The position numbers and the translations under genes were made by a program. The notes under the pieces are model-generated. The model did no database searches. It was not told the DNA's origin and was given only the letters and a program-made list of their open reading frames with translations. DNA of 64,000 bases from Epithemia pelagica (taxonomy: Eukaryota > Protista > Bacillariophyta), in contig OX337234.1 in assembly GCA_946965045.2 (NCBI GenBank), forward strand, positions 1,116,001 through 1,180,000. Direction: 5' to 3'. Below are positions 1-60,246 of the stretch, one piece after another. How positions within the stretch are numbered: position 1 is the first letter of the stretch; the number at the start of each line of letters is the position of its first letter.

Positions 1-929
1 TTTGCCTCCCTGGTTTTCAAAGACTTCAGGAGAGATTCAAATTCATTCAAACACTCCCGCCCATCATTGTACTGGGTTATCAACATGCTGTTGAGGGCCT
101 CAAATTGTACCAAGTACCATTTCTTGTTCCCATCCGTACCCAGCAGAATTGTTGATTGCCCCCATACACTTTCCCTCGAGAAAGCAGCAAGCTGGAGTAA
201 CATTTGGGCCTTATTCATCGGCGTCCTGTCGGTCTTCATCTCGACCAGTGCCATACCGTATGTGTAGAACGATTCCTGAGACCGCTCACAAAGTGCGAGC
301 ATTGATTCCTCCGTAACACATCCGTCAGACTTGCCGTTTGCCACCTTTCGATCGGCCTTGATAGGTGCTAATTTCTTTCCTTTCACGTCTCTTATGCCTA
401 GCTTCTTGCCGTCCACAGCAAGCGCTTGATCCAACTTACCAAAGAGCCATTTCAGTGCCAATGGGGTCCCATCATTTTCCGAAAGTTTTCCTGTTCCTCC
501 CGTCAAAAGTGCTTGCTCCCATTCAAAATTTCCTACAACAGATCCGACTCCGACATTCATGTTGGCGACGGCGTTACGCCAGGAGATCGACAGCCCGGTC
601 AACAGATCGGTTGCAAATTCAGTGTTCGCCTTCGACATGTTTCTGTCATCCGTTTTTGACTCGATCATCATTTTCTCTATGTTTTCAATTTTCCGTTTCA
701 TATCCTCCGAATCATTCGCCTGTTGTTTTTGTTGTTCATTCATTTCCTACACCCAGAGTGAGAACAAAGGTGAAACTGTAAGATCACGAACACAACAGAT
801 AAAACACCACAAGCACAAATTCAAACTCACCTGCTTTTGGGACTCGATCATCATTCCTTCCATGCGTTCAATTCTCCGTTTCATATCCTCCGAATGATTC
901 GCCTGTTGTTTTTGTTGTTCATTCATTTC
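1..929 (-). CDS. Crinkler/CR-type PD-(D/E)xK restriction-endonuclease-fold protein; 5' end missing, 3' end runs off the window (exons 929-831 and 746-<1)
   Basis: Not in the ORF track because it runs off the edge. Manual translation is open from 746 to 1: EMNEQQKQQ...ANGKSDGC...ALVEMKT...AQMLLQLAA, i.e. D..ExK..Q REase motifs. Intron 830-747 is GTGAGT...GTGTAG, phase 0. Confidence 0.7.
751..837 (-). repeat. 87-nt intron-derived sequence identical to 8202-8288
   Basis: Base-by-base match ACCCAGAGTGAGAACAAAGG...CTCACCTGCTTT at both loci. Confidence 0.95.
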
Positions 930-937
930 CTACACAG

Positions 938-2099
938 GACAAGATGATTCTCATTACGATGTTACAAATGCGCGACAATATATGGCCGAATTTGTGCGTC
1001 GAAACGGGGAAGCACGATATGCAGTTAAGAGATTGCATCGTGATTTGAACGATTTGGAAAGAACACGGGGGATGATAGACTTGGCTATTGAAGCCAAGAT
1101 TCTTTCATTTGTATGGCATCCGAATATCAGTAGGTTTTGCATCTCTGCGTTCCCCTGCTTCCCACCTTGAAACAATTTGGTCTCTCATATCAAATCATTT
1201 GTTTTCGTCTCTCCAGTAAAAATGCGTGGAGTTGCTGCAGGCCCAACGCTGAACCCAACTTTCTTTATCGTTATGGATCGTTTGCACGTATCCCTACCCG
1301 AAAAAATGGAAGAATGGGCGCAGATTCAATCGGAACATCAGGGCTCTATTTTTGGAATCGGCTCTAATAAGCCTGAAATGAGGCAATTGCTGCAAGAGCG
1401 TCTAAGGGTGGCGTATGATCTCGCAGCTGCGTTCTCGTACATGCATGACAAGAAGTAAGTGATGATGCTGCTGTACCTCGATCCTCGATATACCATCGGA
1501 ACATATTTTGATCTCAGTGTCTCTCTTTGTAATCAGGCTTGTTTACCGAGATATCAAGCAGGAAAACATTGGTTTTGATGTCCGGGGTGATGTCAAAGTG
1601 TTTGATTTTGGGTTGTGCAAGGGTTTGTTGCCATCAAGAAAGACCAAAGACGTTAATGGTCGAGATTTGTATGGGTTTAACCTGACTTCTCGAACTGGGT
1701 CCGTACCCTACATGGCACCGGAAGTCGCCGAATGTAAACCTTATGATTGCAAAGCAGATGTCTTCTCTTTTGCCATTCTCCTCTGGGAAATGCTGGCCCT
1801 TCGGACAGCGTTCAAAGGATACTCGAGGAAAGAGTTCCTGGATCGCGTTGTCAGACGAAGAGAAAGATTAATAGTAAACCGATTATGGCCATCACTGACA
1901 AGAACAGTGATCAAGGAAGCATGGGACAATGACACACAAAAAAGACCCGACATGAAGGTAGGTTCTGGTTATCTGCTTTGGTGCTTCAATCTGTCTACGG
2001 AATCTCACCACTTTTCTCTTCCTCCAGATCTTGGCCCTAAAGTTGAAAGGTGATCTTGATACTATGTCCTCGTATTCCAAAGCTCGTGATAGAGTCTGA
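938..2099 (+). CDS. TKL-type Ser/Thr/Tyr protein kinase lacking the N-terminal Gly-rich loop (exons ~938-1129, 1217-1454, 1538-1957, ~2028-2099)
   Basis: Motifs YAVK, DLAIEAK, HPNIIKMRG, YRDIKQENIGF, DFG, YMAPE and DVFSF across GT-AG introns. No GxGxxG upstream within the frame. Confidence 0.8.
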
Positions 2100-4015
2100 C
2101 TGACGCGACAAAGATCAGGCGATAGTTGTTCCAGAGGTGGAGAAACGGTGTCATCTTTCAAATAAGTTTTATTTCTGTGCCATTTCCTTTCGCGTTGGCT
2201 CCCGAAGTGGGGTCACGTTCCCACACACTGTTTCTATTTAATTAATGTTCAAACCAGGACCGCTGCCATGCAGGCCGCGAGTACTTCCTGTCAACCACAA
2301 ACTGTTACTGTAACAATACCTCTATACATCCAGGCAATTACAATTCTTGACTTTTCCTGTTTCGACTTGACTGTGTGCGTGCTACCACATTTGCCATCGG
2401 TCTCCATTTGGTCAACGCGCTTGAGAATTGAAACTCCAACTCCCATTCTTCATCTAAAACTGAACCTGTCACTCAACGCAGTGTACGAATACGAAACAAA
2501 CCAGCTCCATCCCATTCATGTGACTTCAAAAGGCAACGTCGACACTCGTGAAGAGCGGGTGTAAGTCTTGTTGGCCAAGCCATCGACAACGCCATTAAAA
2601 ACCTTCGGACATGAGGGAACGCATAGCTCCCTACAGTCTACAGTACTCCCAAAATAGAAGTACTGCCAAATTTTTGCTCAAATGACACGACAGCTGATCA
2701 AGGAGGCTTTTCATACTTCATAGATAAAAGAAGAACTTATATTTTGGGTTAGTTAGGACTTTTGGTCAAGTAGCTGGATGCGATAACACTTTTGAAATGC
2801 CTTGTTGATTCATTGAACATGCTAGAGCAGTAGCTATTGTCCACCCAACGGTGGTGTTCCTACTGGGAACTGTAGTCCCGCTGGTTTTCAACGCGGGACT
2901 AAAAATTGAGTTTCGGGTTTTTCGGCAAAGAGAACATGTCATTTTTTCTCAAATCCTACTTCCAACCAACAACAATGAGACACAGCGTAACGTAACTGCT
3001 GAATACAACCAAAATTGGAAAACCTGGAGAGGTGGCTCTCGCCAGAAGTGATACCGGACCAGAGAGCAAGTCGTGATGAAAATAAATGGAGAAGCAACGT
3101 CGAGCACAGAAACAGGCCAAGTACATGTTGTCCGGCGTTTTGCTGCAAAATCGGCGCAAACATTCACAAGTCAATGGAGGGTTTGTGTTTACTATAGAAG
3201 GCCCAAATCCGGGAAAAGTTTCCGCTTCACGATCATTGGTGGAATCTGCAGGGACGAGACAAACGGGGATATTTGATATTTGTCACAAAACGCCAACAAA
3301 ACCCTCACTCAATAAAAATCGAAAAAGATGTGGGACCTCCAGGCACCGGCTGTTTTGGCTTACTGCCAGGGCGAAGCTCTCCGACCAGTGGCAAGCTGGT
3401 CGATAAGGCACTGCCGCGACGTGAACACGATTGAGAAATTGAGAAGTCGGAATCATATCCCCCAGTTTGCACGCAGCGCAGCATTATCAAAGATCTAGTT
3501 TAAGGAGCATGCTGCAGGATGCAAACGGATATGGTTCGAATTGATGGAATCCATGGGTGATGCGGTTGTCCGACGTTTCCAATTTCCAACTAGGAGTACT
3601 CCTACTGCTAGAGGAGTAAAGCTATGGAGAGGGGGTGGGTAGCTGCCATAACTATGCATCGGAGAAATAAGTTCTTAGATCGCGCGAATCTTCTCCCAAT
3701 CAGATTCATGCATGTTTGACGTGTCGCTCTATTATCTAACGACCACAGCGAAGCAGCAAATTTCCAATTTCCTGCAACTTGCAACGGCATACAGCATAGA
3801 CAGCACGACAAGCCGCTCAACACTCAACAGCACACAGTTGATGACACTTATCCTTGACTATCATCCTTGATTAGAAATGGGAAGTACGTGTCAAGCTTGT
3901 CGTCAAGATCAATCCGAGCCTTGGATGCTTGAACTGTCCTCACAATTTTGTAAAAATCGGCATGGATGTCGCTCGCATTGCCACATCAAGGTAGCTTGAT
4001 TGATTACTCGCAACT

Positions 4016-5544
4016 ATGGATAAACGTGCACAGAAAATCGACGGTTACGACGTTGGACATCTTCTGAAGACGGCAGCCAAGGCAGTGCTAAACAAGACTG
4101 CTGACTCACATGTTTTGGACAAAGAGGCAGAAGATCGAATCCCCAAATTTGATATACAAGGTACGTTGCTACTGATCAGTTTTTTAAAGCTGGACTAATG
4201 CGATCGATTGTTCTCATTGAATCGGTCAATCTTTCCTTCGATTTATTGGACACAGAATTGACCGCTGGAAAGGTTTTGGGAAGGGGAGGTTTTTGCGTCG
4301 TACGTGAAATCACTGAAGTGGTTTTGCATGCGACGGAAGAAGACATCATAGAAGACCAAAAACAGGATGATGAGGATCTTATCCACAATATAATACAGGA
4401 TCGTGGCTTCATGGCGACTCATTACCTTCGTCAGGGTAAAGACTATCGTTATGCCATCAAAGAAGCATCGAAGAAGTCGGCACAGCTCTATGTTAATGCG
4501 GTTGTTGACTTGGCGATCGAGGCCAGGTTTCTTGCGGTTATTCGACATCCAAATATTATAAAGATGAGGGCCATGGCGACAGGTCCAGCATGTCATGGAA
4601 ACTTTTTTATTGTCCTCGACAAATTGTACGACACCCTCTCTGTACGCCTGCGCAAATGGAAAAAGAGATTGAATAAAGGAGTTTTGGCACGCATTGTATG
4701 TGGCGGCAAAAAGGAAATTGAATTTTGGGGAGAGAGATTGACGGTTGGCTACGATCTGTCTTGTGGACTGAGTCATTTGCATGACATGAACATTATCTAT
4801 CGTGACATCAAGCCAGACAACATTGGTTTTGATGTTCGCGGAGATGTCAAGATATTTGATTTCGGCCTTGCTAAGGAATTCAAAAAGAAAGATAGAGGTG
4901 CTGACGGCACTTTCCATCTTACGGCAGAAACTGGAAGTCCTCGATACATGGCGCCAGAGGTGTTTTTGGGCAAGCCGTACAATGAAACCTGTGATGTCTA
5001 CTCCTTTAGCATTTTGCTATGGCAAATACTAAAGGCAGAGGTTCCTTTTGATGAGTATACGGAAAGTATGATAATCAACGATGTTTGCAAGGGTGGCGTC
5101 CGCCCCAAACTGGATCCTTCATGGTCTCAAAATGTTCAGCACTGCTTAATTGCTGGTTGGGCCAGTGAAATTTCAAGGCGTGCGAGCATGGAGCAAATTT
5201 CGGATAAGCTTCGAGAAATCATCATGGTCGAGACCGACGAAGAAGTTGGTGATGACATGGGTTTCTCTCGTAAGAGCGACTGCCGGCATGAGATGATGTG
5301 GAAAGCCATTGAATGGCTCGTTTCCGTCACAAAACTCAACGCTTGCTACTCTGTGGTGTGTAGGCGAGTTTGGCTGCCTTTGGGTATCTCCCTGCAAATT
5401 CCTTCAATAAACGTGCATGGTCGAGGTCGCAGAGCCGACACAGATATTTGTCCCCATGGATTGACGATGATCTTCTTTCGATGGAACAATTTTAGAGAAA
5501 CGTGCATTAGCCATTGCGGAAGAGACGACAGCAGACTTAGATAA
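4016..5544 (+). CDS. TKL-type protein kinase (intron 4161-4255)
   Basis: LGRGGFCVV, YAIK, HPNIIKM, YRDIKPDNIGF, DFGLAKE, YMAPE, DVYSF. Splice DIQ-G|AA-LTAG is in frame. The exact 5' and 3' ends are uncertain. Confidence 0.88.
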
Positions 5545-5575
5545 AAATAGAGACTATGCAATGGAGCAAACTACG

Positions 5576-6433
5576 TTACGGTATTCTGCCCCGACTTGCT
5601 ATCCATACTGTCGTAGCCATAACAGCGACGGCGGCATTGAGAGGTTTGATTTCAGCTAGTAATTGTTGAAAGGTGTTTGCAGGATCACCTTGCTTTCCTG
5701 TCATGATTGCCAAAAACGGAATATTGCTGGTTAGACTGTCTCGGACAGGATCTAGCTCGCCTCCCATCCCTCTCCGAAATCTGGAATCCGTGTGCATTCC
5801 TCCCAGCCATGCGACTGCCGCAGGGCCCATCCACCACAATCTCAAGGCCGGATTCGACTGCACCATGGCATTTCCAGCCGATACAAGACCAAAACTCCAC
5901 AAGCCAGGGTGCCGACTGACACGTTCCAATCCTCGAATGTCACTGGACGATCCCTCCTTGTGTTCGTCTGAAAAATCAAAGGGGCATCTTACTTGGAGAC
6001 TGTATCCAGTTCTTTGAGGAGCTTCTGTCTTTGATGCTATTGCTGATTCCGTAACGTTGTCTTCCATTTTGCTTGATACCATAGCCACAGGAATTTGAAG
6101 CTTGGGCAGCGTCTGCGAAGCAAGTACGAGGCCCACAGAGGCCAATCCCCAAGCTGCAACCAAATTCATGGCGGGAATGGTGGAACCAAATAACGAAGGC
6201 GTCGCGGATTTCAGATTTTTTAGTTTGAAGTACGAATAGCCAATGGAACCCATGGCCACTGTGGATATGAAACCGTACAGTCCGTGGTATTGTTCATCAC
6301 CGAATACTTCTCGTAAATATGTCCGGTTTTCGGATAAAATTGCATTTTCGGCAATGAAGAATGACCAACCGAGACCGCCCCATCTTAATTCATTTGACGT
6401 TAGGAACCGACCAGCCCATGTCGTCATGGTCAT
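5576..6433 (-). CDS. NnrU-domain membrane protein (Z-ISO/NnrU-like)
   Basis: Hydrophobic ORF with ERVSRHPGLWSFGL and GGMHTDSRFRRG motifs resembling the NnrU family. Confidence 0.6.
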   Translation of the reverse strand: MTMTTWAGRFLTSNELRWGGLGWSFFIAENAILSENRTYLREVFGDEQYHGLYGFISTVAMGSIGYSYFKLKNLKSATPSLFGSTIPAMNLVAAWGLASVGLVLASQTLPKLQIPVAMVSSKMEDNVTESAIASKTEAPQRTGYSLQVRCPFDFSDEHKEGSSSDIRGLERVSRHPGLWSFGLVSAGNAMVQSNPALRLWWMGPAAVAWLGGMHTDSRFRRGMGGELDPVRDSLTSNIPFLAIMTGKQGDPANTFQQLLAEIKPLNAAVAVMATTVWIASRGRIP

Positions 6434-6670
6434 GGTACTTCACGCAGTTAGCGGTGGACCTTGGATCTTTTCCTTAACATCATGGCCATGGCGCCATGTC
6501 ATAGACTTGACCTACAGCTTTGACTTGCATGAAATGTGAAAATCATCTACCCTAACTAGAGGGTAGCTCTCTCCCTAAATGGTCGGAAAGGCGGATAGGT
6601 GCAGGTACGTGGTTCTTGCTTCAAAGAAGAACAAAAAAATCCCACAAATCCTTCGTCACTTCAAGAGGCA

Positions 6671-7017
6671 ACCATGATGAGAGAAAAGGGGCTCTCTGGG
6701 CTCAAGTGTTGGCGCTGAGTTTGTCGTCTGTGGAAGGATGGATCGCCCGTAACTTGCAGCATGGATCTCCAGTCCGATCGACCGCCATTCAGATGGCCTC
6801 CTCCGACAGGAACGTCGTCTTGGCTCCGTCCGACAACCCATCAGCGTTTGACTCTTTCAAAATTGGTTATGCCCGAGTGCATCGGTATAGCCGCGAAGAA
6901 GACCCTGAGTGCGAAACTGAGTACGTTATGTGGTATCATGGAAGATCGAAGGAACTGGACGGTGCCAATGAAAATAAGCTTCCCCCTCTTTCGACGGGAC
7001 GGATTGGCTCTGGTTAG
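6671..7017 (+). pseudogene. N-terminal fragment of a plastid-targeted five-bladed beta-propeller (GH43/32/130-like) protein
   Basis: Signal-like ALWAQVLALSLSSVEG|W, then YVMWYHGRS...STGRIG. The ATG at 6671 is out of frame with it, and the ORF stops right after GRIG next to the 3' end of the CR-HNH gene. Confidence 0.4.
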
Positions 7018-7119
7018 CAATCATGCCTGCATTCTAATTCCTAGGGTATAATAATAATTCGCAAAATACGGAAAGTTGAAAAGCATTGTTGATGCGCCAC
7101 TTGCGTGAAACGAGCAATA

Positions 7120-8500
7120 TCACGAGACTGTTCTCCACTGCCCACGTGTTTCATTGTAGTTCCAGAGCAGAAGCTTGTAGATAATTTCATACACATCAAC
7201 AGTCTGCAACTTTTCCTTCCACGATGCCAAACTGGCAAGGTCGTCAACACCTGGAATGGCGGTGACACACACTTTCTCAATTGATCCACCGGGGTTCTGC
7301 TGTTCTTCAAAGAGAAGTTTATGTGTCCGGTTCTTTTCGCAAAATATGTAGATTGGGCCATGAAAATAGCAGTGGCCTTCAGCGTTGGTATCACCAACGT
7401 TTTCAGGCAAGAACGGTCGCCAGGACTCCAAAATCACCCTATCGCGGCACCAAAGTCGGATTGAAATTCGATAGAACTGCTTATGGTCCATATTGATTTC
7501 ATCCGTTGCAACAGGTTCAAGGGCCACTTTTGGTTGAGTTTCGGCTTTTACCGCACTACCCTTTCCCGTACCATCGAAGTTTACATGACCATCTTTCGAC
7601 AGAGCCAGACGATTAAACTCGTGTTTATCAAGCCAAGCGTAGTGTCCCTTGCACTTGGCCCTTGGGAAAATATGAGCACCATCAGCCTTGCTTCGAGCGA
7701 ATGCCCGGTCTGTTTCAATCCGTTGGTACTTGAATACTGTATCGTCCATCCCATAGCTTGTTGCCTTCGACGACAGTTCAATCGCCGAGAGCTCGACATC
7801 CCAAACAGGCGAGTCGTTTGGCGGTTCACCGTCTCGTTGACAGGGAGTGTAGTCACTCGTTTGTACAAGATCAGCGGTAGCTTCGAAAGGTGCGGTTGTG
7901 GAGCGATGGAAACGTCCAAGGCAAGTGACTCCACTTGTCGTGGTGATGTAGTCGTCGACGCTCGTGATAAAGCTGTTGGCACTGCGCTTGTCTTCAAAGA
8001 CGACCGACATCGAAATCAGGCGTTTGTCATCGTCGGTCGAATGATTCTGTACCAGAAAAGAGTCGCCAACATCTTTTCCTTGGGGGTAGTAGCCACCAGC
8101 GTCAATGGCAAGCCGCATTAGCTTGAGGCGCACTCCCCCAATGTTTTTTCCTCGTTCGACCGTGCCCTGAACAAGAAACCAAAAAATCTGCCGCTTCTTC
8201 CACCCAGAGTGAGAACAAAGGTGAAACTGTAAGATCACGAACACAACAGATAAAACACCACAAGCACAAATTCAAACTCACCTGCTTTAATGCATTGCTC
8301 AATTCATTAGCGAACGGGATTGACAATCCGCTTCTCTCAAGCTGTTCGCTTGAGATTCCAAGTAACGTTGATGGTGTGTCAAACCCCTTTTTGAACAACG
8401 TAGATGCCGTTGTGGACGCGACCTTTTTGCGCACACCTTTTCCTTCCAACCATACCTTGAGTTCACTGACATCCTTGAACTCCTCACCGTTGGCACTCAT
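7120..8500 (-). CDS. Crinkler/CR-type protein: SAM-like header exon (8500-8282) plus HNH-nuclease exon (8187-7120), ~428 aa
   Basis: Header MSANGEEFKDVSELKVWLEGKG...LERSGLSIPFANELSNALKQ. Phase-0 intron 8281-8188. C-terminal GAHIFP...NRLALSKDGHVNFDG is an HNH_2-like motif. Confidence 0.72.
8202..8288 (-). repeat. Second copy of the shared 87-nt intron sequence
   Basis: Identical to 751-837. Confidence 0.95.
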
Positions 8501-8956
8501 TGTCGCGCTGTTGGTGTTGTTTGGGTTGTTTGGGTTGTGGCTGCCTCTGTTTGTCGTCGTTTCTTTTGTCTCATCTCTATCTAAGAGAGTGAGTCGTTTG
8601 TGTTGCTGCATGTTTTTCTGGCGTCAGCCATTATTATCAAGCGCAAGGGATCAAAAAATTACATCACCTATACCGAGGGAATGTGGCAAAATGAATCGTG
8701 ACTGCGCAGAATACAGTCTTATTTAAGCCTTTGAACTAAACCCGTTCTTGACCCTTTGGTCTCGCGCGCATGCAGGTCAATCAAAAAGTGATCGCGTGAA
8801 ACTTCCTTCTGGTCGCTGAAAACGCTTCAGCGGTGACATCATCGTGCTGTCTTTATCCCACACTCTATGAGTCAGTCTCTTGTCAAACTCTCTTTGTGAG
8901 ACTTCTCATTCAACATTCAACGAAGGCCTCGTCCTCTTTGAAAGTCAAGTACCAAC

Positions 8957-12760: not shown

Positions 12761-13666
12761 TCATTCGTCCCAAGGATCAATCACAATGGGATTTGGCAAC
12801 GGACCATGATCTTCCCCCATATCCTGGACCGCCAATGGGCGGTGTTGTTGTTGTTGCTGTTGCTGCTGGTGTCGTCGAGCACAGTTGCATTGACACGACT
12901 TCTGGCGTCGTCTAAGATATTCATGGGTGAAATGTATCGCTCGCGTCCAATACTCGGGTGGAATGAGGGAACGAAGTCGTTCATGCAAGGCGGCAACTGT
13001 ACTGTGATAGCCCGGTGCTTGTTCTTGGCTCCGCTTCGAACACGTTCGCATAATGGTTCGTACCACTTGAAGAAGGGGTGGATCATGCAACTCCATGTAC
13101 GCCATGAGTAACCGGACAAAGACAAAGAAGGTTCGTCGTTGCATCTGGAATTCCTGTGGAGTACAGGGATATTGAAAAAAGCTGGGATTCTGATGGTGTT
13201 GGGCATGTTGATCTCTGATTCTGGTCTCCTCATTGGCATTTGGAATTTTGGTGGCGTGAAATTCCAAAGAACAGGATGACGATGATGATGATGACAGAGG
13301 CTTGGAGTCTTCTTGCGCAGAAGACGTGTCGTCCGAGTCTTCTTCAATCAGCGCTCGTCTTGGCTGAGATTGCGTAGCTCGTTCTTGTTCCAAAAGGGAC
13401 ATGGTGTGATGACGGGGAAATTGTTTTGTGACGTAAAATTTCACAAGATCGAAGAAAATGGTCCTTTGATCAAAAGTAAGTATTCTTGTTTGCAAAGATC
13501 GCAAACGATGTTCCAATGTCGATCGACGGATCAATCTTAAAGAACCGACCAAAGAGACTGTAAAAGGGACTGATGACAAAATCAACGGGGGCTCGTCGTC
13601 GTCTCTCCTTTGCTTGCAATGGTCGAGATTGAGATTTGCTTGTGTGTGTTTTTGAGCCCTGGGCAT
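12761..13666 (-). CDS. Diatom-type helical-bundle protein (RST/alpha-alpha-hub-like), paralog of 45134-46045
   Basis: FFQYPC..Q...RTFFVFVRLL...LRSLIPPEYW..A core plus a poly-Q-HRPLAV tail shared with the 45134 ORF. Confidence 0.55.
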   Translation of the reverse strand: MPRAQKHTQANLNLDHCKQRRDDDEPPLILSSVPFTVSLVGSLRLIRRSTLEHRLRSLQTRILTFDQRTIFFDLVKFYVTKQFPRHHTMSLLEQERATQSQPRRALIEEDSDDTSSAQEDSKPLSSSSSSSCSLEFHATKIPNANEETRIRDQHAQHHQNPSFFQYPCTPQEFQMQRRTFFVFVRLLMAYMELHDPPLLQVVRTIMRTCSKRSQEQAPGYHSTVAALHERLRSLIPPEYWTRAIHFTHEYLRRRQKSCQCNCARRHQQQQQQQQHRPLAVQDMGEDHGPLPNPIVIDPWDE

Positions 13667-13866
13667 GAGAAGCGATCCGATTTTGTTGATATCGTGTTGA
13701 CGTTGCGTTGTTGGTTTGCAAAGGATGTGGGACTGGACGCTGCTCTTTTACCGCCCCATACGATGCCGCGTATTAAAATTTGTATTGCCCATTATTGCAT
13801 AATCAACCGTGTGAAACCGGAAGTACATCAAAATGGTCGTAGAATCCCCGAGCTGTACAATAAAAA

Positions 13867-14549
13867 AACCCTCGGTATCAGTGTCCACTGCTTAGCTGTT
13901 TTTTGTCTGTGCCACCTTCACAGGTTCCCATGTGGACACAGACAGCATTTTTCGCTTTTGATGCAAATAGAAATTATCAAATTGCAAATTGGCACGCATG
14001 CCCAGCTGAACTTTTCGACGTTTGAAGCGGACGCAAGCCCAACAAGCGTCCCCTGCGTGGATGACGGTTGGTTGTTGCATAATTCGGGGCAAGCTCACAA
14101 TTCTCTTTTCTTTTGCCAAAGCACATCGTACTTACTGCTTACGAATGTTACTGGCTTTCCAGGTGAGCTTGATCCATTGCCAATTTCCATGTTGTCAATG
14201 ACATCACTCATGCTCACGACCAATTGCCACTTTTGCTTGCTCTGCTCGTGGGAGACGCTACTCATCTGTTAAGTCGCTGGGCAGCTCATTACTCTCATTG
14301 TTCATTCTTGTCGAACAGAAATGACTGGTTTTTGCTGAGCGCCATAACTTTGATTGCATTTAAAAAACTCTATACTCTAGATATTCTTTTGTTTATTTAC
14401 TAGTAGAAGAACGCCAGTGCTTGTCATCCATGAGACTTTTGAGCCTTGTTAATTTGTTGCAGCTTTGTTCTTTGTTGTGAGCACGACGATGACCCTAAGT
14501 TTTGCTATGAAAACACAACAGAACAGCTCTCACAAGCTTGTACCGCTCA
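13867..14549 (+). mobile_element. Left arm of a ~690-bp long inverted repeat (foldback/long-TIR element)
   Basis: Reverse complement of 24880-25570, starting AACCCTCGGTATCAGTG, with scattered substitutions. Confidence 0.85.
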
Positions 14550-14804
14550 CTTTGAGCACTCTGTGTCGACTACCTACCTAGGTAGGATATGATAATTGGT
14601 CAGTAGGGTGTGGCAAGATGGCTTCCCATCTATTTGATGCAAAAACAACATCGTTGAGAAATGATTGAGAATGACGCTATGATGAGAGACGAGAGAGAAT
14701 AATCTATCCTATAGAGCATATGACAGTAGCCAAAGCCAAAAAACAATCAAACAACAAACAATTACGGCAAGGAAAAGATATTCCAGTTGACATCTGGCGG
14801 CTTG

Positions 14805-15525: not shown

Positions 15526-15534
15526 CTCCCTCTC
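15526..15534 (-). promoter_or_regulatory. Polypurine tract GAGAGGGAG
   Basis: Immediately 5' of the 3' LTR in element orientation. Confidence 0.8.
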
Positions 15535-36783: not shown

Positions 36784-36835
36784 AAGGTACCAAGATTATC
36801 ACTTCTTATCAACTCCATCCTCTCCCACAACGACG

Positions 36836-42812: not shown

Positions 42813-43134
42813 TACCTTACGAGCTACGAGACCATCTCCTGTCTACATCACTCTATCCTAGGAGTAAGAGGAATCAGCAGGTAAATGTAAAGCATCAGCA
42901 TCTTTGTACACATTCTCCTCTATAAAATGTTTTTCCTTAGTTTGAAATGTATGTGAAAGTGTTACAAGGCTCTCTCGTCCGGACATTGTGCTAGATTGGG
43001 ACCTCAATAACACCATGACCTGAACTCTGGACGCAGGGCCACATTGGGTGTTGGACAATGGTAACCTGAAGAATTAAAACGACCAACTTGGAGTTCCTGA
43101 GTTTGCATTTACCAGCTCATCGTGTAGCTACACG

Positions 43135-46045: not shown

Positions 46046-46802
46046 ACAAGTAAAACTTGTGTGTGTGTGACGAGGGATCCTTGCTATATGACGTCGGTGG
46101 GATCCACACTCTCAGCATGGGGGCTGAGTTCCTTGCATCCAGGGTGGTGTATTTTATCAATGTACATTATTTTTCGATGGAATTTGTGGAGGTATTCTGT
46201 GTATGGGAGAGAGAAAGATGCACAATGATAGTCAAAAGAGTAGGAAAGCAGACCAAGGGTAGGGTACTGCTTGTTTCAAGCTATAATTCTTTTTGTATAT
46301 TCTCGGGAATTTGTAGTGTTGATTCCAATGGACTCGTTGATGTAACGGGCTACGGCTACATTGCATTCGAATCTCTAATCATTAGGCGACGGCTGCCGGT
46401 AGCGAGACGGACCACCTCTAGAGACCTCGCCTCCACATGGTTCGAGCAAGAAAGGGCATGTGGCTCGGACCAGACAACTACCTCTAGATACTTACGGAGC
46501 CGCAGCGGCTGGAGATACTCCGCATTCCGCCAACGAGGAACCACAGAAATAATCCTCTCCGACATTTTTTTACCCAAACTGGCTGGGTAGAGAGCTGCTC
46601 CGCATTCTGCCAAGCGACACAATACCGTAGTACTTAGGTAGAACTACCAGAATCATCCCTATCCCTTCGCTGTTGTGTATCCAACATTAACATTTTGATT
46701 TTCGATAGACCCATGCCGAGAATACTCGTACGAGTATTGTGGACGTAGACGACGACCAATACACTACAATAGCTTAGGTCGACGTGCTCCCATACTCCCC
46801 TA

Positions 46803-47341
46803 CAAGCTGAGTTCAGACAGAATGTTCCTATTGTAGCGCTCCAGTAGGAAATCTACGCAATACGCGCCAGCCATCTTTGTTTATATAGCCCGTATAATTA
46901 TGCCTCTGTTGTGCAAAGTGCCTCCGAAACTCGACAATCTCGCGTTCCCCCAGAAAAACTTCGTTTTGTACGAGACTATCGTGCGTGGGGTGCGTCCGAT
47001 GATCATGTTATTGTGGATGATGCCGATGCGTTGAACTGTTGCCCCATTGGTGGTGGTCCAACAACACCCTAAGGGAGCTGGATGCAGCTCGGCAACAGTT
47101 CAACAGGTCGGGACGGCCCTCCACCATGGTCAACAATGGACGGTTTTTTCGTAATCTTTTGGACGAAATTCTAGCGTTCGGAAGAAATCACACATTACAA
47201 AACACATAGTAAAATATTTATTTCAGCCACTAGGAAGTCGCTAGTCGGACACTAATAACGCAAAACGCTTTCCAGGATTACTCCTCTGGTACAAATTCTA
47301 CAGGAGTCTACGACAGGAACACACTCCCTGAACTCAGCTTG
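46803..47341. mobile_element. MITE, sister of 42266-42812 in opposite orientation
   Basis: Same TIR and TA flanks. Confidence 0.85.
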
Positions 47342-47515
47342 TACGAGTATCCCTCCGATTGCGGGGGTACCTCCCGTCTGCTGTCCATACGGTTATTCCC
47401 AAATTTTCCAAAAAAATGTAAAAATTATTTCTTTCAAATTTCTTTTGATTTAGCACATTAGTATAACGTCCAAGCCAACTGTAATAACTGGCTTCGCCCT
47501 ATTGTATTGTGTAGC

Positions 47516-48195
47516 CGCTTGCGCTCATGAATGGGAAACAGGAACCGTGAGCCGTGAGACTTGACGAGACATGCACAGAGAAATCTACAAGCCCATTTTG
47601 TACTCTAAAGTCTATACTGTTTCAGAAGCGAGTACTCTTTACGTAGTAGTGGATCAAGCTTCACGGAATCATCACACACACACCATGAAATACACACACA
47701 TGGTGCAACACAAGCTCCTGGCACTTTGTCTATGGGAAAGATAAAAGCATAGTCCACTACTAGTTTAGGCTTCCTGCTTCCTGGGCTTACATACCCCATG
47801 ATGACGCTGTCAAACCTTCGCTTCATCATTGCAGTGGTTGATTGTTCATTGCAGTGGTTCATGTTTCATGTTGTCATCCTTCCTTTGATGTATTCCGCCT
47901 TCACCTGTGATCTAGGTGGATGGTTTTGGCCATAAAGTTGTCACTGTGGTCGTTCGTACGGCTGGATGGTTTTCTTTTGGTTTTTGGTGTGCTCATGGTC
48001 GTCTTTTGTGGTGTTGCTCGAAAAGTGAGACGATTCCTGGCCCTTGTGCCAGCAATACAAGGCGTGACCGGCGCGTCTATTTCGAACGATCGAAGGGAGG
48101 CTGGCGATGTCACCCGGCTGGCGCTTTGGGAAAAAATACGAGACAATTTTTTCCTTTCGGATGACGGACGAACAAAGGTACCCCCCAATCGCACC
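47516..48195 (+). repeat. Second copy of the ~700-bp repeat
   Basis: Matches 29196-29908. Confidence 0.9.
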
Positions 48196-48864
48196 CTTTT
48201 TGTACGAGTACGAATCCGTACAACAACGAGTAGCAAGAAAAAGAGAGTACAGATCAACTTCAATATTCCTGTACAGATTGCTCAAGCGAAATCGATCGTG
48301 CGACTTTCGGATCTCCGTACACTTTGAGTTACTCTCAATCGGAGATGGCTCGTTGTGTAGATGAAATAGTAACGGACTACTATCATTAAGTACGATCCGC
48401 CAAAGCCATGGCAGAATTATGACTGACAGATTGTTCCATGCTGCCAGAACTAAGCCGTTATTTTTCTTACAATATGCCGTGTGACTGAAGAGTCGCACTT
48501 ACCATTCCACAAGAATTAACAAAAAAGGAAAATAAAGTCGGGCTATATTGTCAGAATATTGCCCAAGACGCCTCGACTCACGGGTATTCTACTCTCTTTG
48601 CTATACTAAAGCTCCGCGTCATTGTCAAATTTGGTACGAACGCAGGATGAATCTGCACAAGTCTTCTCAAGCCATTTTCTAAGGCAAAAAAGGTCGCCCC
48701 TTGTGCTTGTGCATCCATTGCCACTGGCATCATCGCTCTTTTGGGTATCTTGTCGGTTCTTGGAATGCCTTGATATCATCAACGCATCCTCTCTCTCATG
48801 TTGTCATAAAATCAGAAACTGTCCAAAGCAAAGGATAACAATCTCTTGTTTGGACACTACAAAA

Positions 48865-51800
48865 ATGAAACTCCTTCTCTCGAACATTATGCTCCCCTTC
48901 AAGTCGTCGTCGAAAACGACGACCTGTCTATCAATGCTTCTGCTTCTCCTCGTCAAGGTCCACGACGCCTCCGCTGAGCTTCCGTTGGGATCGTTTACGA
49001 AACGATCGCATGATTTGCAAGGCGACGTCTTTGCCTTGAGTGATCGTGTATTGGAAGTGCGCAACATGGTCTACGATGGTTTGGGACCTGCCGCCTTCTT
49101 TTGGGCCGACACAAATCCAGTGCCTTCTGCCAATGGCCTTCGATTGGCGGAAGGGATTCCCAGCCGCACTTGTGGCACTCAAGCCTTGCCCGAGGCCAAT
49201 GGCGATACCTTTCGCTTTGAGTTTCCCGAAGGAACAAGTTTGCGTGACTACGTCGGTGGATCGATTGGTGTTTGGTGTGAGACGGCCCGTGCCAATTTTG
49301 GAGAACTCATTATTGATGCCAACATTGACTTGTCTTCGTTGAACACCTTGGCCTTGGGTGAAGGACCGCCCATGGAATGTGGAACCTTGACGATTGGTAC
49401 TTTTACCACGCGTTCTCATGAATTGGCCGGCGAGGTCGTGGCCCTCAGCGATCGCGTCGTCGAAGTTCGCAACCTTGTCTATGATGGGTTGGGACCAGCC
49501 GCCTTTTTCTGGGCCGATACCCGAGCCGTCCCTTCCAGTTTTGGTCTTCGACTGCGCGATGCGTCTCCCAGTCGGAGTTGTGGTACACAAGCCTTGCCCG
49601 AAGTTCGGTCAGGTACGGTTCGCTTTGAATTTCCCGAAGGTCAAACCATTCGTGACTTTGCTGGTGGATCCCTTGGCGTCTGGTGTGAAACGGCCGCCGA
49701 AAACTTTGGAGAAGTGATTCTGACAAGTCCGGCCTTGGGCTTGTTGCCTGTGGCCAATGCTGGCGCTGGTCCGCAAATGGAATGTGCCCAAGTGAGTTTG
49801 GGACGCTTTACGACGCGCGCTCATGATTTGGAAGGTGAAGTAGTGGCCCTCAGTGATCGTGTCATGGAAGTTCGAAGTATGGTTTACGATGGGTTGGGTC
49901 CGGCGGCCTTTTTTTGGGCCGACACATCGGCGACACCCACCTCAAATGGCTTGCGTTTATTGGATACACAACCTGGCAACAGTTGTGGCACGGACGAATT
50001 GCCCGAAGCAAGGACCGAAACCTTTCGATTTGAATTTCCCGATGGAACAACGATTCATGATTATGTGGGAGGTTCAATTGGTGTATGGTGTGAAACCGCC
50101 TCGCAAAACTTTGGAGAAGTCGTCGTGGGGGCCAACCTGCCCCTGTCCACCTTGCCCGTGTCGGCTGAGGGACGGGGACCGGCCTTGGAATGTGGCGAAA
50201 GTGGTGGCACGTCCTTTGCGCCCACACCAGAAGGGTACAATTGCGAAGAACTCAATGATGACTTTCAAATCCGATGGAAGGTGGAAAACGATCAAGTCTT
50301 GATGGAACTCATTGGTCGTATTGAAGACGATGGATACATGGCCTTTGGCGTCAGTGGTAGTGAAACGGAAGCTCTCATGTTGGGTGCCGATCCTGTTGTG
50401 GCCGACTTTTTTGAAGGATCACCCCGGGCTCGTGATTATTACATGAACAATCGAGGTCAGTGTTCCGTTGACACGGGTGTTTGTCCGGATGAAAATGCCT
50501 CCTTCATGAACGATGTCACGTCTGACAGTGTCAGTGGAGAACGCGAACAAGGATTGACCTTGGTCCGATACCAGCGTCCGGCAGCACCGTCCAATGTCAA
50601 TGATCTCTTGACTGGATATACCGTCGATCGAGCCATGAATGTGCAATCGGGAGAGTTGACTACTGTGGTCTGGGCCTTGGGACCGGTCGATGCGGTATCC
50701 GGCAATCCCTTTTTCCATTCCATTGACTTTTCCACAACCTTGATTCAATTCGAGTTTGGACGCAGTGTCGTGGACAATTGTACTCCCCTTCAACCCAAGG
50801 AAGATGACGACGAAGAAATTTTTCCCTTTTTGCGACCCGTCTTGCGGGATACCACAGAAATCAATGCTGTCATTGGTCCTTCCGGAGGTGATCGGGGATA
50901 TGCCTCAATTTCGGGTGGCCGTGCTGCTTGGGGTATTGCGTGGTTCCTTAATGGTAAGTCGCAACGATATTCAATGGGTTTGTCGTTTTGTTGTTTGAGG
51001 ACGTTTTCTCAACTTCATGTGTTGGATGATTCGATTGTTTAGACATTTTGATCCCCGTGGTCGAAATGAGACGAGGAACGACTTATACATTCCGTGTGAA
51101 TGGAGGCGACGACGAAGAATCCCCTTCTCAATATCACCCCTTCTACTTGTCGGACTCCGTCGGGGGAGGATATGTTCAGCAGAGTCCAGAAAATCGACTC
51201 ATGGAGACAGTCTTTGCTGGAATCCAAATTACCAACCAAACCGACGAGGGTGTCTTCGAATTTGAGCCCACCGCCGTGGGTCCCTTGTGTTCCTATGGCG
51301 AGACGGATGCCAGTTCGGAATCATCTACCGGAGGTAAGTGTTACACTAGGACTGGTACCGTCACAATGGACGTGTCATACACGACTTGGAATCTCACACA
51401 AATGCCTCTGCGAAACAGGCTTCCTCGAGTATTTCTCCTCTCTCGATACATCTTGTGCTTCCGACGAGATGATTACCAGTGCTGCTGGAGTATTGGAATT
51501 CACCCCCGACGAAACCACTCCCGATTTGATCTACTACCATTGCGTAACCCACACCAACCTTGGTTGGGAAATACGTGTCATTGATGCTGACGCACCATCC
51601 ATCTTGGACGTGAACTGCGATGCATTCGGCTCTGCTCCAATCCAACTGACCGAGGATCTTACCTTGAATGCGATTGTCGATCCCATTGAGAACACTCTCA
51701 CGGCCGAACTCGTCTACAATGGCATTGGATGGGTGGGAATGGCGTTTACAAACGAACAGCCAGTCATGGTTGGAGCCGAGGCAGTCATTGGGTTGCCGGA

Positions 51801-52821
51801 CGAACCGAACAGTGCTTCCAACCCTGCAAAGTACAATTTGAATCAGCGCTCTGATGCCGGAGTGGTTCGCATGCCGGCAGAGAAACAGACTTTGATCGAT
51901 GCCTCCATTACTCAGGAAAACGGAAAGACGACTTTGAAATTTACCAAACTCTTGTTTGAAGACGGAGAGCATCCCATTTTCTCCGATCGATCCAACACAT
52001 TCTTGTTTGCTCATGGTTCCAGTAACACGCTTGGCTTCCATGCTGGCTTTGGTGGGTTTACTCTCTTACCCAACCAATGCGCTGTCAGGATCGCTGGAGA
52101 ACTCCAAAATGCGCATGCCCTGAACCAGCAAGGCCAAGTCGGTGTGGATGTTGCCGATTTGAACCGTCCGCTATGGGTTGCTCATGGTGCTTGCGCCGCC
52201 ACTGCTTGGGGTATTTTGGTTCCGTTGGCCATTGGAGCCTCCTTGGTTCGAAAGGTCTTTGTCAAAATGGGACTTCCCGAAGGCGCATGGTTCCAGGTTC
52301 ATCGTGCACTCAACATGTTGGCCGCCATTTTGACCTTGATTGCCTTTTCGTTGGCCGTCCGTGCCATCAACAAGGGCAGCCCCGATGACCCCAATCATTT
52401 TGACAGCGAGATTCTGCACCGCCACACTGGACTGGTCATCTTTATTTTGACCATGGCACAAGCAATCAATGGTATTTTGCGTCCCCATGTTCCGCACAAG
52501 GAGACGGAAGAAAAGGAAGACACGAACGATGATGATGATGAAATCGGGGACACGGAGACTCCCGAGAAAGATGAGAGCAAAATGCCTCCGGAACAAAGCA
52601 CCATCGAGGAGAAGGGTCCTGTTCGTTTTGGATGGGAGATTTTCCACCGTCTTCTTGGTTTCACACTTCTCGGGTTTACTTGGTGGCAAGTGCAAGACGG
52701 TTTGGGATTGTTTTCCGAACGTTTTCAGGAAGACAATTTGGACACGGTTTTCTGGATTGTTGTCTCGTGCCTTGCCGGGTCGATTGGAGCGGTGGCAATT
52801 TTCGCGCGTGTTGCGCTTTAA
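48865..52821 (+). CDS. Skeletor/Knickkopf-like multidomain protein: signal-DM13x3-DOMON-cupredoxin-like-DOMON-cytochrome b561 (introns 50954-51042, 51334-51418)
   Basis: Three YDGLGPAAFFW...GVWCE..NFGE repeats; GYMAFG DOMON; HPFY...YYHCVTHTNLG; GWVGMAF DOMON; four TM His motifs (AHG, VHR, HRH, FHR). Both splices are in frame. Confidence 0.82.
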
Positions 52822-54907: not shown

Positions 54908-55589
54908 GTGTTGAGGTTTAGAGAGAGTATTGCGTGATGACGCCGTGTTCTAGACAAGGGACGGCACTTCGTTAGGGTTCTTCTTTATTCCCCAAAGGAG
55001 TATGACTCATGTCGAAAGGCGTTCCTTGTCCAACAATTTCCCCATGGTCAAAAGTGCCACATGAAACACGACAAAAATTTTGATACATAGCTATGAGACT
55101 ATCCTACCTACCATGTCCGATCGCCTCATTAACTCCTCTAGCATAAGCCCATCCAATCTGAATCTTAGGTACCTCTCTAGAAGAGGGTTCGTAATTCCCA
55201 ATTTCCATGGACAATGATTCAAGACAACGATGAGAAACAGTCTTTCCGCAATCAATCATCAATCTGTGAGCCCAAGGAAATGGAAGTACGGTACTCCATT
55301 TTTGGCACTCCAAATGTTTCTGTTGTTAAAACAGACGCATAGTTTCGTTAACGCCAATAAACGACTGTGCCTATCTACAACGACAAAACAGCCTCACGAT
55401 AAATTTTTGTGGAGAACAACGGAGACACCATCATTACTTACCTTCATCCTTCCATTGTCTCGGAATGGCCATTTGTCTGAATCGAACATTAGGAGATGGG
55501 ACGTGAATAATTTGTGTGGATTCGTTTGGTGGTGCTGCACTACAAGGTTTCGGAGTACCTACCTAGTACAAAAAAATCATCGACTACTA

Positions 55590-56674
<1,085 letters not shown>

Positions 56675-57013
56675 TTAAGCGGTCATTGTCCCCTTCGGAT
56701 CGACGTGACAAACCAACACACAAGCGCCAATGTTCTATGGAACTCCTCAGCGGTATAGAGTGAATCGTTTGAAACATTGGGAAAAGAAGTGCGACCCGTT
56801 CTGGGACTCGTTTTTCCGTCCCAATCCCCAATCAACATTTCCCTCCAATACAACCATGACGACCAGCCGCAAGCTCCACCAACACAGAGTAGGATCACCA
56901 TAGACAATGTTGGTGGAGTGAAGCTCAGCTCAGAAAATGGACGTACAATAGCTGCTTGCAAAGACAAGGTATGGTCGCGTTGATCATAACGAGCATCAAG
57001 TGATTGGAAGAGA

Positions 57014-57235
57014 ATGCTCTCGCTTTCCTCAAAACTCTTCAAGAACGCGGTTGCGAACCAGTCTTCTGCGATATCGGGTGGTTCTGTCGCCAAAGCCTTG
57101 TTTTCGACCAAGAATGGAACTTTCAAATGGTTCAATATACAAAAGGGGTATGGATTTATTGCCCCAGATGATGGATCTGATGATGTTTTTGTGCATCAAA
57201 CCGTAGTCCATGCCAATGGATTCCGTTCTCTTGCC
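57014..57235 (+). pseudogene. Mitochondrial-type cold-shock-domain protein, only the first exon recognisable
   Basis: Transit-like leader, then [12 protein letters not shown] and DVFVHQ (RNP1/RNP2). Donor GTAGGT after GFRSLA. The expected second half of the CSD is absent downstream. Confidence 0.7.
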
Positions 57236-57339
57236 GTAGGTGGCCATCATCGACAGTCTTGTAATTTGTGTGGAGCATCTTGTCTCAATGCTGTTGTTGC
57301 GTTCTTCCATGTTTTCAACTGTTAGCTTTAGAACGGAGC

Positions 57340-58570
57340 ACACAGCGGGTCATCAGCTTGGGCAACCGACGCAGCATAGTGAATTGCAAGAGGAGCTTAG
57401 GGCATTGAAAAAGCTTTTCGTCAAGAAAACCGTAAACGAAGCGAGAGCTGTTAGCTATGCGGAGTACTACGACGAAAAAAATGCTAGAGGGAAGGATCGA
57501 AACCTGGTCTCCAACATCTACAAACGCCACCGACTCCACCCAACTGCGAGCTTATCTTATTCAAGCTCCAAGTGGGTCGGAAAAAGGAGACCGTCAAGCC
57601 ATTTTGGAAGGATATTTTAAGCCGACACGAGCTCCTCCCGGCATGGAATAACGGTTACGAGATCGCACATTTGGGCACGAAAATCCCGGACATTTCAATT
57701 TTCCCTCAACATCTAGAAAAGCCGTCAAAAGGGGACTTTGTTGCCGCGGGAGATTGTAAGGGAAGTACTTGGGATGGGACATCTCATGCAGAATTGGGAC
57801 AGATCATGTCCTACGTACATCGAATGCTTGATACTCAATCGACAAGGCAGCTTGGCTATGGCTTCAAGCGTCTTAGCTTTTGAACATGATATGAAGCTTT
57901 GGCTACAGCTCATGCAAGAAGACACGGGGTATCATCAGCCCCACACTGTGAGCGGATATCCCATGTCCTTCGACCAAACTCTCCGACCGGGAGGGACATG
58001 TCGGGCATTTGGAGCAACCTATCGTGGGGCAGCGGTGGTTGCAAAACTAGATATATGCGGATGCTGCAAGACTTCCAAGCCCGAAAAGGTAATGATACCA
58101 AACGCAGATTTGGTTTGGTGGGCCCCTTTAATTGGAATGGACCTAACTTCGAGTGTCGTCCTGCGGTCTAGTGTGGGTAGGGATGCTCGTCCCTAACCAC
58201 CTTTGTTATGAGTTTGACTGAGGCCTAACCTATCTGTACACAATGAATACCCATCGCTTTTTACGTTGTTTGATGTTATGGATTATTACGCTCTTGACCT
58301 GCCTCCATCGATTGAGAAACTTTTAGCTTCTCTTCACGAATTCCAGTTTGGGCATACCATTGAGAAACTTTTAGCTTCTCTTCACGAATTCCAGTTTGGG
58401 CATACCGACATTGTAGACCACACTGTATTACTTCATTTCATCCGTCCCCCTACCATCTTCTCAACATCACCAAGCATAGAGGTCAAATGGAGCCAAGGCA
58501 AGCAAATTGTCCTGAGGAAGAACTGCCTACACATATATCAAGAGATATATCTGAGAATGAATCAAGATTC
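57340..58570 (+). pseudogene. Degenerate CR-type REase plus protein kinase
   Basis: KIPDISI...GDCK...ELGQIMSYVHRMLDTQSTR REase; RPGGTCRAFGATY..VVAK and LHEFQFGHTDI kinase remnants. Frameshifts and stops. Confidence 0.6.
58311..58406 (+). repeat. Perfect 48-nt tandem duplication
   Basis: ATTGAGAAACTTTTAGCTTCTCTTCACGAATTCCAGTTTGGGCATACC occurs twice. Confidence 0.95.
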
Positions 58571-58752
58571 ATGACAACAGAAATTGGATGAAGCTCTGTC
58601 AATCACAACTATGGAATGTCAGAACAGTTCTGGAATCTGTCGGACCGACGAGAAAGGGCAACTACTCTGGCCTAACCTGCCGAGGTAAACTATGTTGGAG
58701 CATGTTGAGCTACTGTACAGTCTATGTGGACGACGCGAGGAGAGGGGAGTTT

Positions 58753-60246
58753 TTATGGACCTGCAATGCGAGTACTTCCCCTATAGACTTCCTTCGTGCT
58801 CATCAGGAATGTGAAAACTTGGCTTTCAAAGAACCGCCCCTGATATTGCGGGCTTGGCTTTATTGGCCGGTCGCCCATTTTTTGATAATTCAGAATCGCA
58901 AAGCTACTGTTACCAATCACGTAGTGTGGGGTCCCTCCGGGAGTTTTCGGAAAGAATCTGAGTATGTGCTCGTCAAGCTTCGCGATTTCGGTGTTGTTGA
59001 TGGCGCTCGTTAGGACGCACTCAACGAAAGAGTCAACACGAGAATTGAAATATAGGTCAGGTTTTCTTGCTGCCGTCCCAACATTGACAAGCTTTGGGTT
59101 GAACAATCGAGTTTTGAGGTAGGAAACCCCCGAAAGAATGATTAAAAGTTCCAACGTAAGTGCATCTTCAATGGGCCCCCCAAAAGGGTTGTACGGCGTC
59201 CAATCTAGATTTGGAAGAGCGAACTGAAGAAGTTCCTGCACACCTTCGACACCATGCGAGAGCTGATTTTTGAAAGAGTGGCTTGATGATATCTTGGAGA
59301 TGAATTCTTCAAAGAGAAATTCGGATAAGATCTTATTGTTGGCGTCGCAGAAGCCTTTTCGCTTGAGATCATAGAGTAACGTTGGATCCTGGGTTTTATA
59401 CAGTAGTGGACGCACGTCAGTAGATAAAATATCAGGTAGACACCGATCAGCCATGGCCTTGTACTGGTCCTGGCCTTGCAACTCATATGAATGCAAGTAC
59501 TCTAATGTCTGAGCGGTATTGTAGCCTTGCGCAACACGCTTCGTTACCAGAACCTCTGAGAGCCACATTAAGGGATGGATGTGCCCACCGACGTAGTTAC
59601 GTACATGTTCCAAGACCGTACGGAGACTTTCGACATTCGCAGCAGCTGGCCCGCCTACAGCAGCCGCCACACCCGAAAAATAATCCACCACTCCTTCGCG
59701 AACCATCACTTCGTTTGACGACAAGAAGAGGTCAGACGTGTCCACTTTTTGCGTGAACTTTTGACTCATCGTTTGGTACTCGGGCACACCAGCGCCTACC
59801 GTGGTGATCTTGTGGTTCATAGTATTCTTCAGGAGGAGAGTATAAAGTCCTCCTCCCACGTTATCTTGGGTTTCGTCAATGAGAAGCCACACTTGCTTTT
59901 TCTCGTTAGCCAGGGTCTTGACGAAATGGATCACGAGTTCTCGGTTCAGGAATGTCGCGTTCTCAATAAAGTACACAGTCTCGTTTTTAGCCTGTAGAGC
60001 CAATCCGATCAGATTCAATAAGGTTGTTTTCCCCGCGCCCCGGCACCCGTTGATGTGGACGGACACATGGGGGCTAGCGACGTTCAATACTTTTTCAACG
60101 AGCCCTGTCCACTGCACCACAAAGGGACCAAAGCCTACTGCCTTGAACGACTCGTACGTTGCCTGGGGTTTAAAAGAAAACTCTGTGGCGACTCTTTGGA
60201 AGTCTTCGTCAGTCGTCGTCGCACGCGTTGCCGTCGTCATCTTCAA
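58753..60246 (-). CDS. CR-type P-loop NTPase plus REase-fold protein, intact 497 aa
   Basis: Walker A GCRGAGKT, Walker B LLIDE, C-terminal RKPDLYFN...FVEC...LDEHILRF. Confidence 0.7.
   Translation of the reverse strand: MKMTTATRATTTDEDFQRVATEFSFKPQATYESFKAVGFGPFVVQWTGLVEKVLNVASPHVSVHINGCRGAGKTTLLNLIGLALQAKNETVYFIENATFLNRELVIHFVKTLANEKKQVWLLIDETQDNVGGGLYTLLLKNTMNHKITTVGAGVPEYQTMSQKFTQKVDTSDLFLSSNEVMVREGVVDYFSGVAAAVGGPAAANVESLRTVLEHVRNYVGGHIHPLMWLSEVLVTKRVAQGYNTAQTLEYLHSYELQGQDQYKAMADRCLPDILSTDVRPLLYKTQDPTLLYDLKRKGFCDANNKILSEFLFEEFISKISSSHSFKNQLSHGVEGVQELLQFALPNLDWTPYNPFGGPIEDALTLELLIILSGVSYLKTRLFNPKLVNVGTAARKPDLYFNSRVDSFVECVLTSAINNTEIAKLDEHILRFFPKTPGGTPHYVIGNSSFAILNYQKMGDRPIKPSPQYQGRFFESQVFTFLMSTKEVYRGSTRIAGP

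Follow-up and report, generated by a model that had tools for sequence, protein, structure and literature searches.

A probably split gene for a predicted Crinkler-like nuclease in likely diatom DNA points to tail exchange by insertion into an intron

The window analysed here, a stretch of 64,000 nucleotides (contig OX337234.1, positions 1,116,001 to 1,180,000), carries four stretches, A to D, which by comparison of their predicted proteins are members of one mix-and-match family of Crinkler-like predicted nucleases, the Crinkler/RHS-like (CR) type, in which a header precedes an enzymatic tail. A and B are best read as the two halves of one gene, into whose first intron a 7.3-kb segment beginning with an HNH-type tail would have been copied, and C and D as a convergent pair (Table 1). 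We have high confidence in the anatomy of the locus, namely its modular architecture, the reconstitution of an intron, a new splice and variant copies, and we lean towards the explanation that intracellular CR nuclease cassettes spread selfishly by break-repair copying. The occurrence of CR proteins in free-living eukaryotes and the recombination of their headers and tails are already known; what stands out is a tail replacement legible to the base, with capture of a splice site, together with a cross-species tail.

Results

Two likely halves of one gene

The sequence-only reading of this DNA had proposed four CR-type genes within 60 kb, and four CR-type stretches were found near the places it gave. 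The CR type was upheld by a Crinkler-linked tail and by shared headers; the count of four independent genes was not, A and B being best read as one split gene. The single 60-kb unit was rejected; the four stretches reduce to two clusters, the split gene and the C-D pair, 49 kb apart. The insertion described below, the main feature of the locus, did not figure in that reading.

Table 1. Coordinates and reading of the CR-type stretches and adjoining features in the window
Feature	Position	Strand	Reading
Gene A exon 2	1..746, extends beyond window start	-	Coiled-coil linker and predicted restriction endonuclease (REase; PD-(D/E)xK-like) tail; orphaned tail of the ancestral gene
Gene A intron	747..830	-	84-nt GT-AG intron; intact copy of the shared intron
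Gene A exon	831..929	-	99-nt phase-0 exon; tandem duplicate of the exon 2 start (13/99 differences)
Split-intron stub	930..935	-	Terminal 6 nt of the split intron, at the left junction of the putative insertion
Putative inserted segment, 7,268 bp	936..8203	-	HNH tail, small gene, NnrU-like gene, kinase 2 and 3' part of kinase 1
Gene B exon 2	7120..8196	-	Predicted HNH-type nuclease tail (H175, N195, H204, D208)
Gene B intron	8197..8281	-	First 78 nt of the shared intron, GTG overlap and acceptor AG just inside the insert; spliced in X4
Gene B exon 1	8282..8500 (ATG at 8500)	-	73-aa header; type also found on REase and REase-kinase tails in relatives
Cold-shock-domain (CSD) exon	57014..57235	+	Joined to gene C by an out-of-frame splice (57235->57326)
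Gene C	57354..58094	+	Broken REase (DUF6826-like, PD...DCK...Q) and truncated kinase
Gene D	58753..60240	-	Intact, 495 aa; STAND/AAA+-like NTPase, helical region and predicted REase-like tail; no header
hAT transposon, multi-copy	60414..64000	+	Adjoins D, which lies outside its left end; context only

The 78 nucleotides at 8281-8204, followed by the 6 nucleotides at 935-930, are identical to the intron of A over its whole length (84/84, 0 mismatches). Because the two halves rejoin as an exact copy of that intron, 936-8203 most plausibly entered a single ancestral gene as an insertion. In the simplest reading, this gene had a header, an intron, a 99-nt exon, a second intron and an REase exon, and the insert lies in the first intron. 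GTG is present at both junctions of the insert and may represent a 3-bp duplication or microhomology. The insert begins at the header/tail boundary of an HNH gene, since the relatives P0034, P0083, P0085 and P0086 (P numbers are labels of relatives' proteins) carry the tail behind a different header that ends there. No transposon ends were found in the insert.

Contigs of several sequencing runs, labelled X1, X2 and so on, match the window; such contigs drop variants, and all statements on them concern the records listed. The 5% shares of X6 and X7 were given no weight, the comparison with X7 covering 55400-62400 only. The insert ends inside kinase 1, and the missing 5' part of this gene is present in contigs of X1, X2 and X4. 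The depth of the X1 contig was 192-229 over 936-6500 vs 105-146 at the ARF gene, the C variants and the right flank (rough values), which fits two copies of 936-6500, depth being no copy number.

X4 was taken as RNA from its GT-AG skips, seen also at neighbouring genes. In it, the splice 8282->8196 joins the B exons in frame, with 27 letters on the shorter side of the joint. The same run carries the A tail beneath two other headers (loose ends 740 and 748, the 740 version matching P0095), and no joint between the window's own A exons was found in it. For these reasons, the window copy of A is likely silent.

The header region of B exists in a second version. In X1 and X2, at 8286-8592, the same promoter region is joined to the same intron without a 305-nt header stretch, perhaps as another header variant. 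Within the insert, kinase 2 is shorter in the window than in X1, X2 and X4, by 9 nt at 4456 and by 1 nt at 5278, and an X1 contig holds about 950 extra letters at 6502; these differences may reflect decay of the duplicated copy, strain difference or assembly error.

Headers shared among tail families

From fetched relatives of the four stretches, 48 headers of at least 35 residues were cut; shorter headers, alignments missing the start of the tail and three unrelated 56-aa cluster members were left out. The 48 headers fell into 22 groups, and 4 of these groups occur on between two and four tail families each: A+B+C+D in one group, A+B+C in two and A+B in one. Header pairs across families at E<=1e-3 numbered 18, compared with 1 match in 20 rounds of a shuffle control.

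The link to Crinklers differs among the stretches. For B, it runs through the tail, which matches the tail of P0068 with 27% identity over 259 aa (database E 3.2e-7, pairwise E 3e-13), P0068 being a Crinkler-domain protein (Pfam PF20147, E 5.8e-19). A, C and D are tied to Crinklers only via shared headers, and profile-profile comparison of their families, with shallow profiles, gave nothing (probability <=0.13%). The ubiquitin-like header PF20147 (LxLFLAK/HVLVxxP) matched neither the window open reading frames scanned nor the B header, and the headers found here matched no Pfam family.

In a crude test, the N-terminal hydrophobic score was 0.88 for B and 0.12 for D, compared with 2.8-3.6 for three control genes of the window, and only 6 of the 48 headers reached 2.0. 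No signal peptide is thus evident in the predicted B and D proteins, which agrees with the earlier view that a host-cell effector function is unlikely. Tails have also been joined to host genes, namely to a CSD exon in the window and to histone H1 in P0005.

The predicted enzymatic tails

For the B tail, 35 matches were obtained among 1,727 candidates. H175 and N195 are conserved in 32/32 sequences and H204 in 31/32. Of 26 B-family relatives that were scanned, 2 had HNH_2 scores just short of the cut-off. The tail is predicted to be an HNH-type nuclease, supported by these metal-finger residues (H...N...H). The sequence-only reading had called the gene SAM plus HNH (7120-8500); the HNH part was supported by the conserved residues, and no match to SAM was found in Pfam or PDB sequences with a 5-sequence profile of the header or with its members. 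The header may be SAM-like. The 2016 work of Zhang et al. may already include diatom CR proteins and a SAM-like header.

For the A tail, 14 matches were obtained among 442 candidates, and the site pattern E...D...ExK...Q was recognised (E89 in 15, D140 and Q180 in 14, and E168 and K170 in 13 of 17 sequences, the rest being mostly gaps). In the fold search with the A model (confidence score pLDDT 55), the top row was the mitoribosomal protein mL37, for which an endonuclease-like fold is possible but a separate search gave no confirmation, and rows with the REase fold (BpuSI, TT1808, DUF820, HsdR and DrdV) appeared only at Z 4.6-5.5. No nuclease family for A was found in Pfam or NCBIfam. The REase fold of A is predicted from the conserved E/D/ExK/Q residues together with these weak fold matches, and in this sense the REase proposed at 1-929 was retained as a prediction, in a headless tail that runs off the window; judged from P0100 (340 aa), about 92 C-terminal residues lie outside the window.

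For D, 33 matches including itself were obtained among 7,995 candidates scored, the others at 37-63% identity. The D model (pLDDT 88.8) matches STAND/AAA+ NTPases over residues 13-319 (best Z 14.3, root-mean-square deviation 3.7, 267 aligned), the Walker A Lys is present in 29/33 rows and the Walker B DE in 30/33, and nSTAND_NTPase5 was recognised in 29/33. The modelled fold and these residues confirm the N-terminal part as a P-loop NTPase of the AAA+/STAND type. The last 170 residues have an REase-like order of helices and strands in the model, with E365 in 33/33, D396 in 30/33 and E408 in 31/33 rows (496-residue frame numbering), and this domain has no fold match of its own in a fold search that barely probed it. 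An REase is predicted here from topology and the conserved E/D/E. The proposed NTPase plus REase at 58753-60246 was thus borne out for the NTPase, and its REase stays a prediction from topology and E/D/E; the gene runs from 60240 to 58753.

D exists in further contexts. P0101 is a second copy, and three different 5' flanks meet near 60257 (those of the window, an X4 loose end and P0101). In P0005, and likewise in P0110, the NTPase-REase tail is fused in frame behind a linker-histone H1 domain, and sister copies of these two proteins have two other N-termini. D was also considered as cargo of the hAT element, which was rejected, D lying outside the left end of the element.

The relatives of C are intact header-REase-kinase proteins (21 matches among 1.84 billion representatives), in which the REase is followed by a kinase with its catalytic loop. 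The window C ends before that loop. Its similarity to these relatives is confined to 57354-58094, is broken into three pieces and lacks about 26 codons; for 58095-58570, no counterpart was found in any of the 8 relatives compared. The proposal of a decayed REase-kinase gene at 57340-58570 therefore held for its decay and not for its extent. The splice 57235->57326, which joins the CSD exon to C, was seen in X4; an in-frame CSD fusion was rejected, as the splice runs into a stop at once. X1 holds several variants of C, and the X4 copy has a different 5' part before 57360. The birth-and-death turnover suggested earlier agrees with the several copies found, intact and dead.

In scans that reach close relatives only, there was no match to gene A or the shared intron in JGI metagenome contigs, to B in viral contigs, or to D in viral contigs, prokaryote genomes and plasmids. 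P0040 is labelled as a protein of a bacterial metagenome-assembled genome (MAG) and lies on a 1-kb contig; it was not taken as proof of a bacterial copy.

Identity of the HNH exon between organisms

In X5, a run of organism B from another study, the HNH exon differs from that of the window at 31 of 1,090 nt (97% identity), followed by different sequence beyond 8203. Among the 20 differences listed, 11 are synonymous, and at most 22 of about 241 synonymous sites differ. The ARF-family exon in X5 has 34 differences in 171 nt (80%), and it is the only X5 record on 55400-62400 at 80%; no match was found in X5 to the kinase, NnrU-like and NAD-binding genes at 88%. Had organism A contaminated the run, a near-identical ARF contig would be expected, and none matched. 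The 97% of the HNH exon compared with the 80% of the ARF exon suggests that the HNH tail moved horizontally, and recently, between organisms.

Discussion

In the explanation towards which we lean, a header-REase gene would have received, in its first intron and at the GTG overlap, a copy of the segment starting at the HNH tail, as a microhomology-primed templated insertion at a DNA break. The AG just inside the insert serves as splice acceptor, giving the in-frame header-HNH message whose splice is seen in X4, and the REase tail would have been left headless downstream. The predicted nuclease tails would act inside the cell, including in the nucleus, and the cassettes would spread selfishly by copying into DNA breaks, which CR nucleases may make themselves. 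We infer the order of events, the nuclease activity, the nuclear action, the horizontal transfer and the selfishness.

Several observations weigh against this explanation. Among the records listed none bridges 935/936, and the contigs of X1, X2 and X4 run through 936 into other sequence, so that the window assembly is the sole source for the left junction. The X1 depth cannot be taken for a copy number, and its value at the right flank (146) lies in between. The evidence for transfer comes from a single run of a single study, and that this run is RNA is a guess. The model of A is of low confidence and its best REase-fold rows lie within background, the D tail is without the canonical Lys, and no terminal repeats or inverted ends, which would point to machinery of self-mobility, were found at the C-D block. 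Lastly, the catalytic residues have long been conserved across diverse diatoms, which fits a benefit to the host equally well.

Of the three functions proposed by the sequence-only reading, the selfish one is favoured by recent copying, entry into host genes and likely transfer, and defence is its main rival. A host-maintained intracellular defence, in which the nucleases would attack the DNA of invaders by cutting it or would kill a cell once infected, and the swapping of headers would diversify sensing or regulation, is possible though unlikely. It would account for the catalytic residues conserved across distant diatoms and for the coverage of A, B and D, and not of the hAT, by contigs of the spliced run X4, and the NTPase of D is closest in fold to STAND immune proteins; however, AAA+ unfoldases and ORC/Cdc6 lie within about 2 Z of the top D rows. 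In the account of PMC5289972, non-secreted plant CR proteins are proposed to target invasive DNA. Against defence, host genes (kinase 1, CSD) are damaged or entered by copies, which themselves decay fast. That the genes are passive passengers, moved about in a repeat-rich region by segmental duplication and by ordinary transposons, with little function and no spreading role of their own, is an improbable alternative. Transposons make up about 37% of the window, the hAT starts 174 bp from the D ATG, housekeeping genes were carried in the insert as well, and CR-like genes of fish ride hAT or mariner elements according to PMC12957317; but D lies outside the hAT left end, the insert is without transposon ends, and intact, transcribed copies retain their active sites.

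Weapons against other clones or microbes, in the manner of bacterial polymorphic toxins, are the least likely of the functions, and we regard them as very improbable. The logic of a header with variable tails is the same, an orphan tail is present, and some relatives carry ubiquitin-like or Crinkler headers, but the B and D N-termini lack a hydrophobic signal, few headers reach the score of 2.0, and no immunity-like gene was recognised beside any tail. A delivery route is not known in diatoms. In the bacterial Rhs and contact-dependent inhibition (CDI) systems, a new toxin tip takes the place of its predecessor, and the displaced tip persists downstream as an orphan. The displaced tail likewise lies downstream here, whereas immunity genes and a repeat shell are lacking and the joining is completed by splicing. 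A eukaryotic counterpart of such tip replacement, in which tails would make or exploit breaks, be copied with flanking genes into introns, be spliced to a resident header or host exon and move between species without transposon ends, is a tentative and rather doubtful generalisation of the selfish-copying explanation.

The locus can be set beside known systems. According to the summary of Zhang et al. 2016 in PMC5289972, free-living eukaryotes have CR proteins, which carry diverse helical headers and the tail types predicted here (NTPase-REase, REase-kinase, HNH and REase); unlike in that summary, the window genes are without a PF20147/LxLFLAK header, their headers match no Pfam family, and D is headerless. 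Recombination of headers and tails is described for Phytophthora Crinklers in the part of PMC3726527 consulted, where likewise one header occurs with different tails and one tail with different headers; the breakpoint described there is the exonic HVLVVVP motif, whereas the one in this window falls within an intron, at an overlap of 3 nt. The 7.3-kb insert here also contains neighbouring genes, its splice acceptor has been captured, and the orphan tail is kept in place. Spok toxin/antidote meiotic drivers, as presented in PMC12693581, combine nuclease and kinase in one intracellular, selfish protein, the architecture of the intact relatives of C; the window C is dead, its kinase active site being lost, and the likeness is one of architecture. 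The selfish Crinkler-like gene AACRNL of fish, in the portion of PMC12957317 that describes it, resembles the present genes in its free-living host, its multiple copies with pseudogenes and a nearby hAT, but has an ADP-ribosyltransferase tail and flanking terminal inverted repeats, whereas here the tails are predicted nucleases with no enclosing repeats. In the text seen of bioRxiv 10.1101/2025.10.10.681168, the Crinklers belong to an oomycete parasite and not to the diatom. Among the top-ranked matches of the literature searches, none dealt with swaps of CR headers or with transfer of CR genes in diatoms, and no precedent for a base-exact swap by insertion plus splicing was found in the literature searched.

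The locus would thus represent a recent, base-exact swap, both products of which are still present, together with a new gene that is spliced and a likely transfer between species; the group concerned is non-pathogenic and can be cultured. It bears on the role of CR proteins in free-living eukaryotes and on header/tail exchange without homology, and it makes the question of selfishness or defence testable at one locus.

Other features of the window

Besides ordinary genes, the remainder of the window contains two Copia elements, an inverted-repeat element and the hAT; the transposon share given above has rough boundaries. The window is eukaryotic, and its genes have named relatives in a Bacillariaceae MAG, in Grammatophora oceanica and in Striatella unipunctata, by which the source is likely of the diatom group, in agreement with the alga-type source proposed earlier. 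Rfam gave no match within the window.

A Copia element in 13867-25570 has long terminal repeats at 14805-15525 and 23848-24568 (99.7% identical) and a pol gene with in-frame stops, and it is nested inside an element with 680-bp inverted ends (95%). The second Copia, at 29196-36270, is decayed, and a 700-bp segment of its left end recurs at 47516-48186 (91%). An alpha-kinase gene (region 41182-43998 and 42264-47343) has a 76% duplicate, with an 81% inverted duplicate segment nearby. The open reading frames at 12761-13747 and 45098-46045 belong to no clear Pfam family and look paralogous by eye, and the protein encoded at 48610-52821 is of secreted type and combines three DM13 repeats with DOMON domains and cytochrome b561. 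Finally, a 108-bp segment without an Rfam match occurs at 60292-60399, upstream of D, and at 36676-36783, upstream of a tandem-duplicated sulfotransferase gene (95%); the hAT starts 14 bp beyond the former copy.

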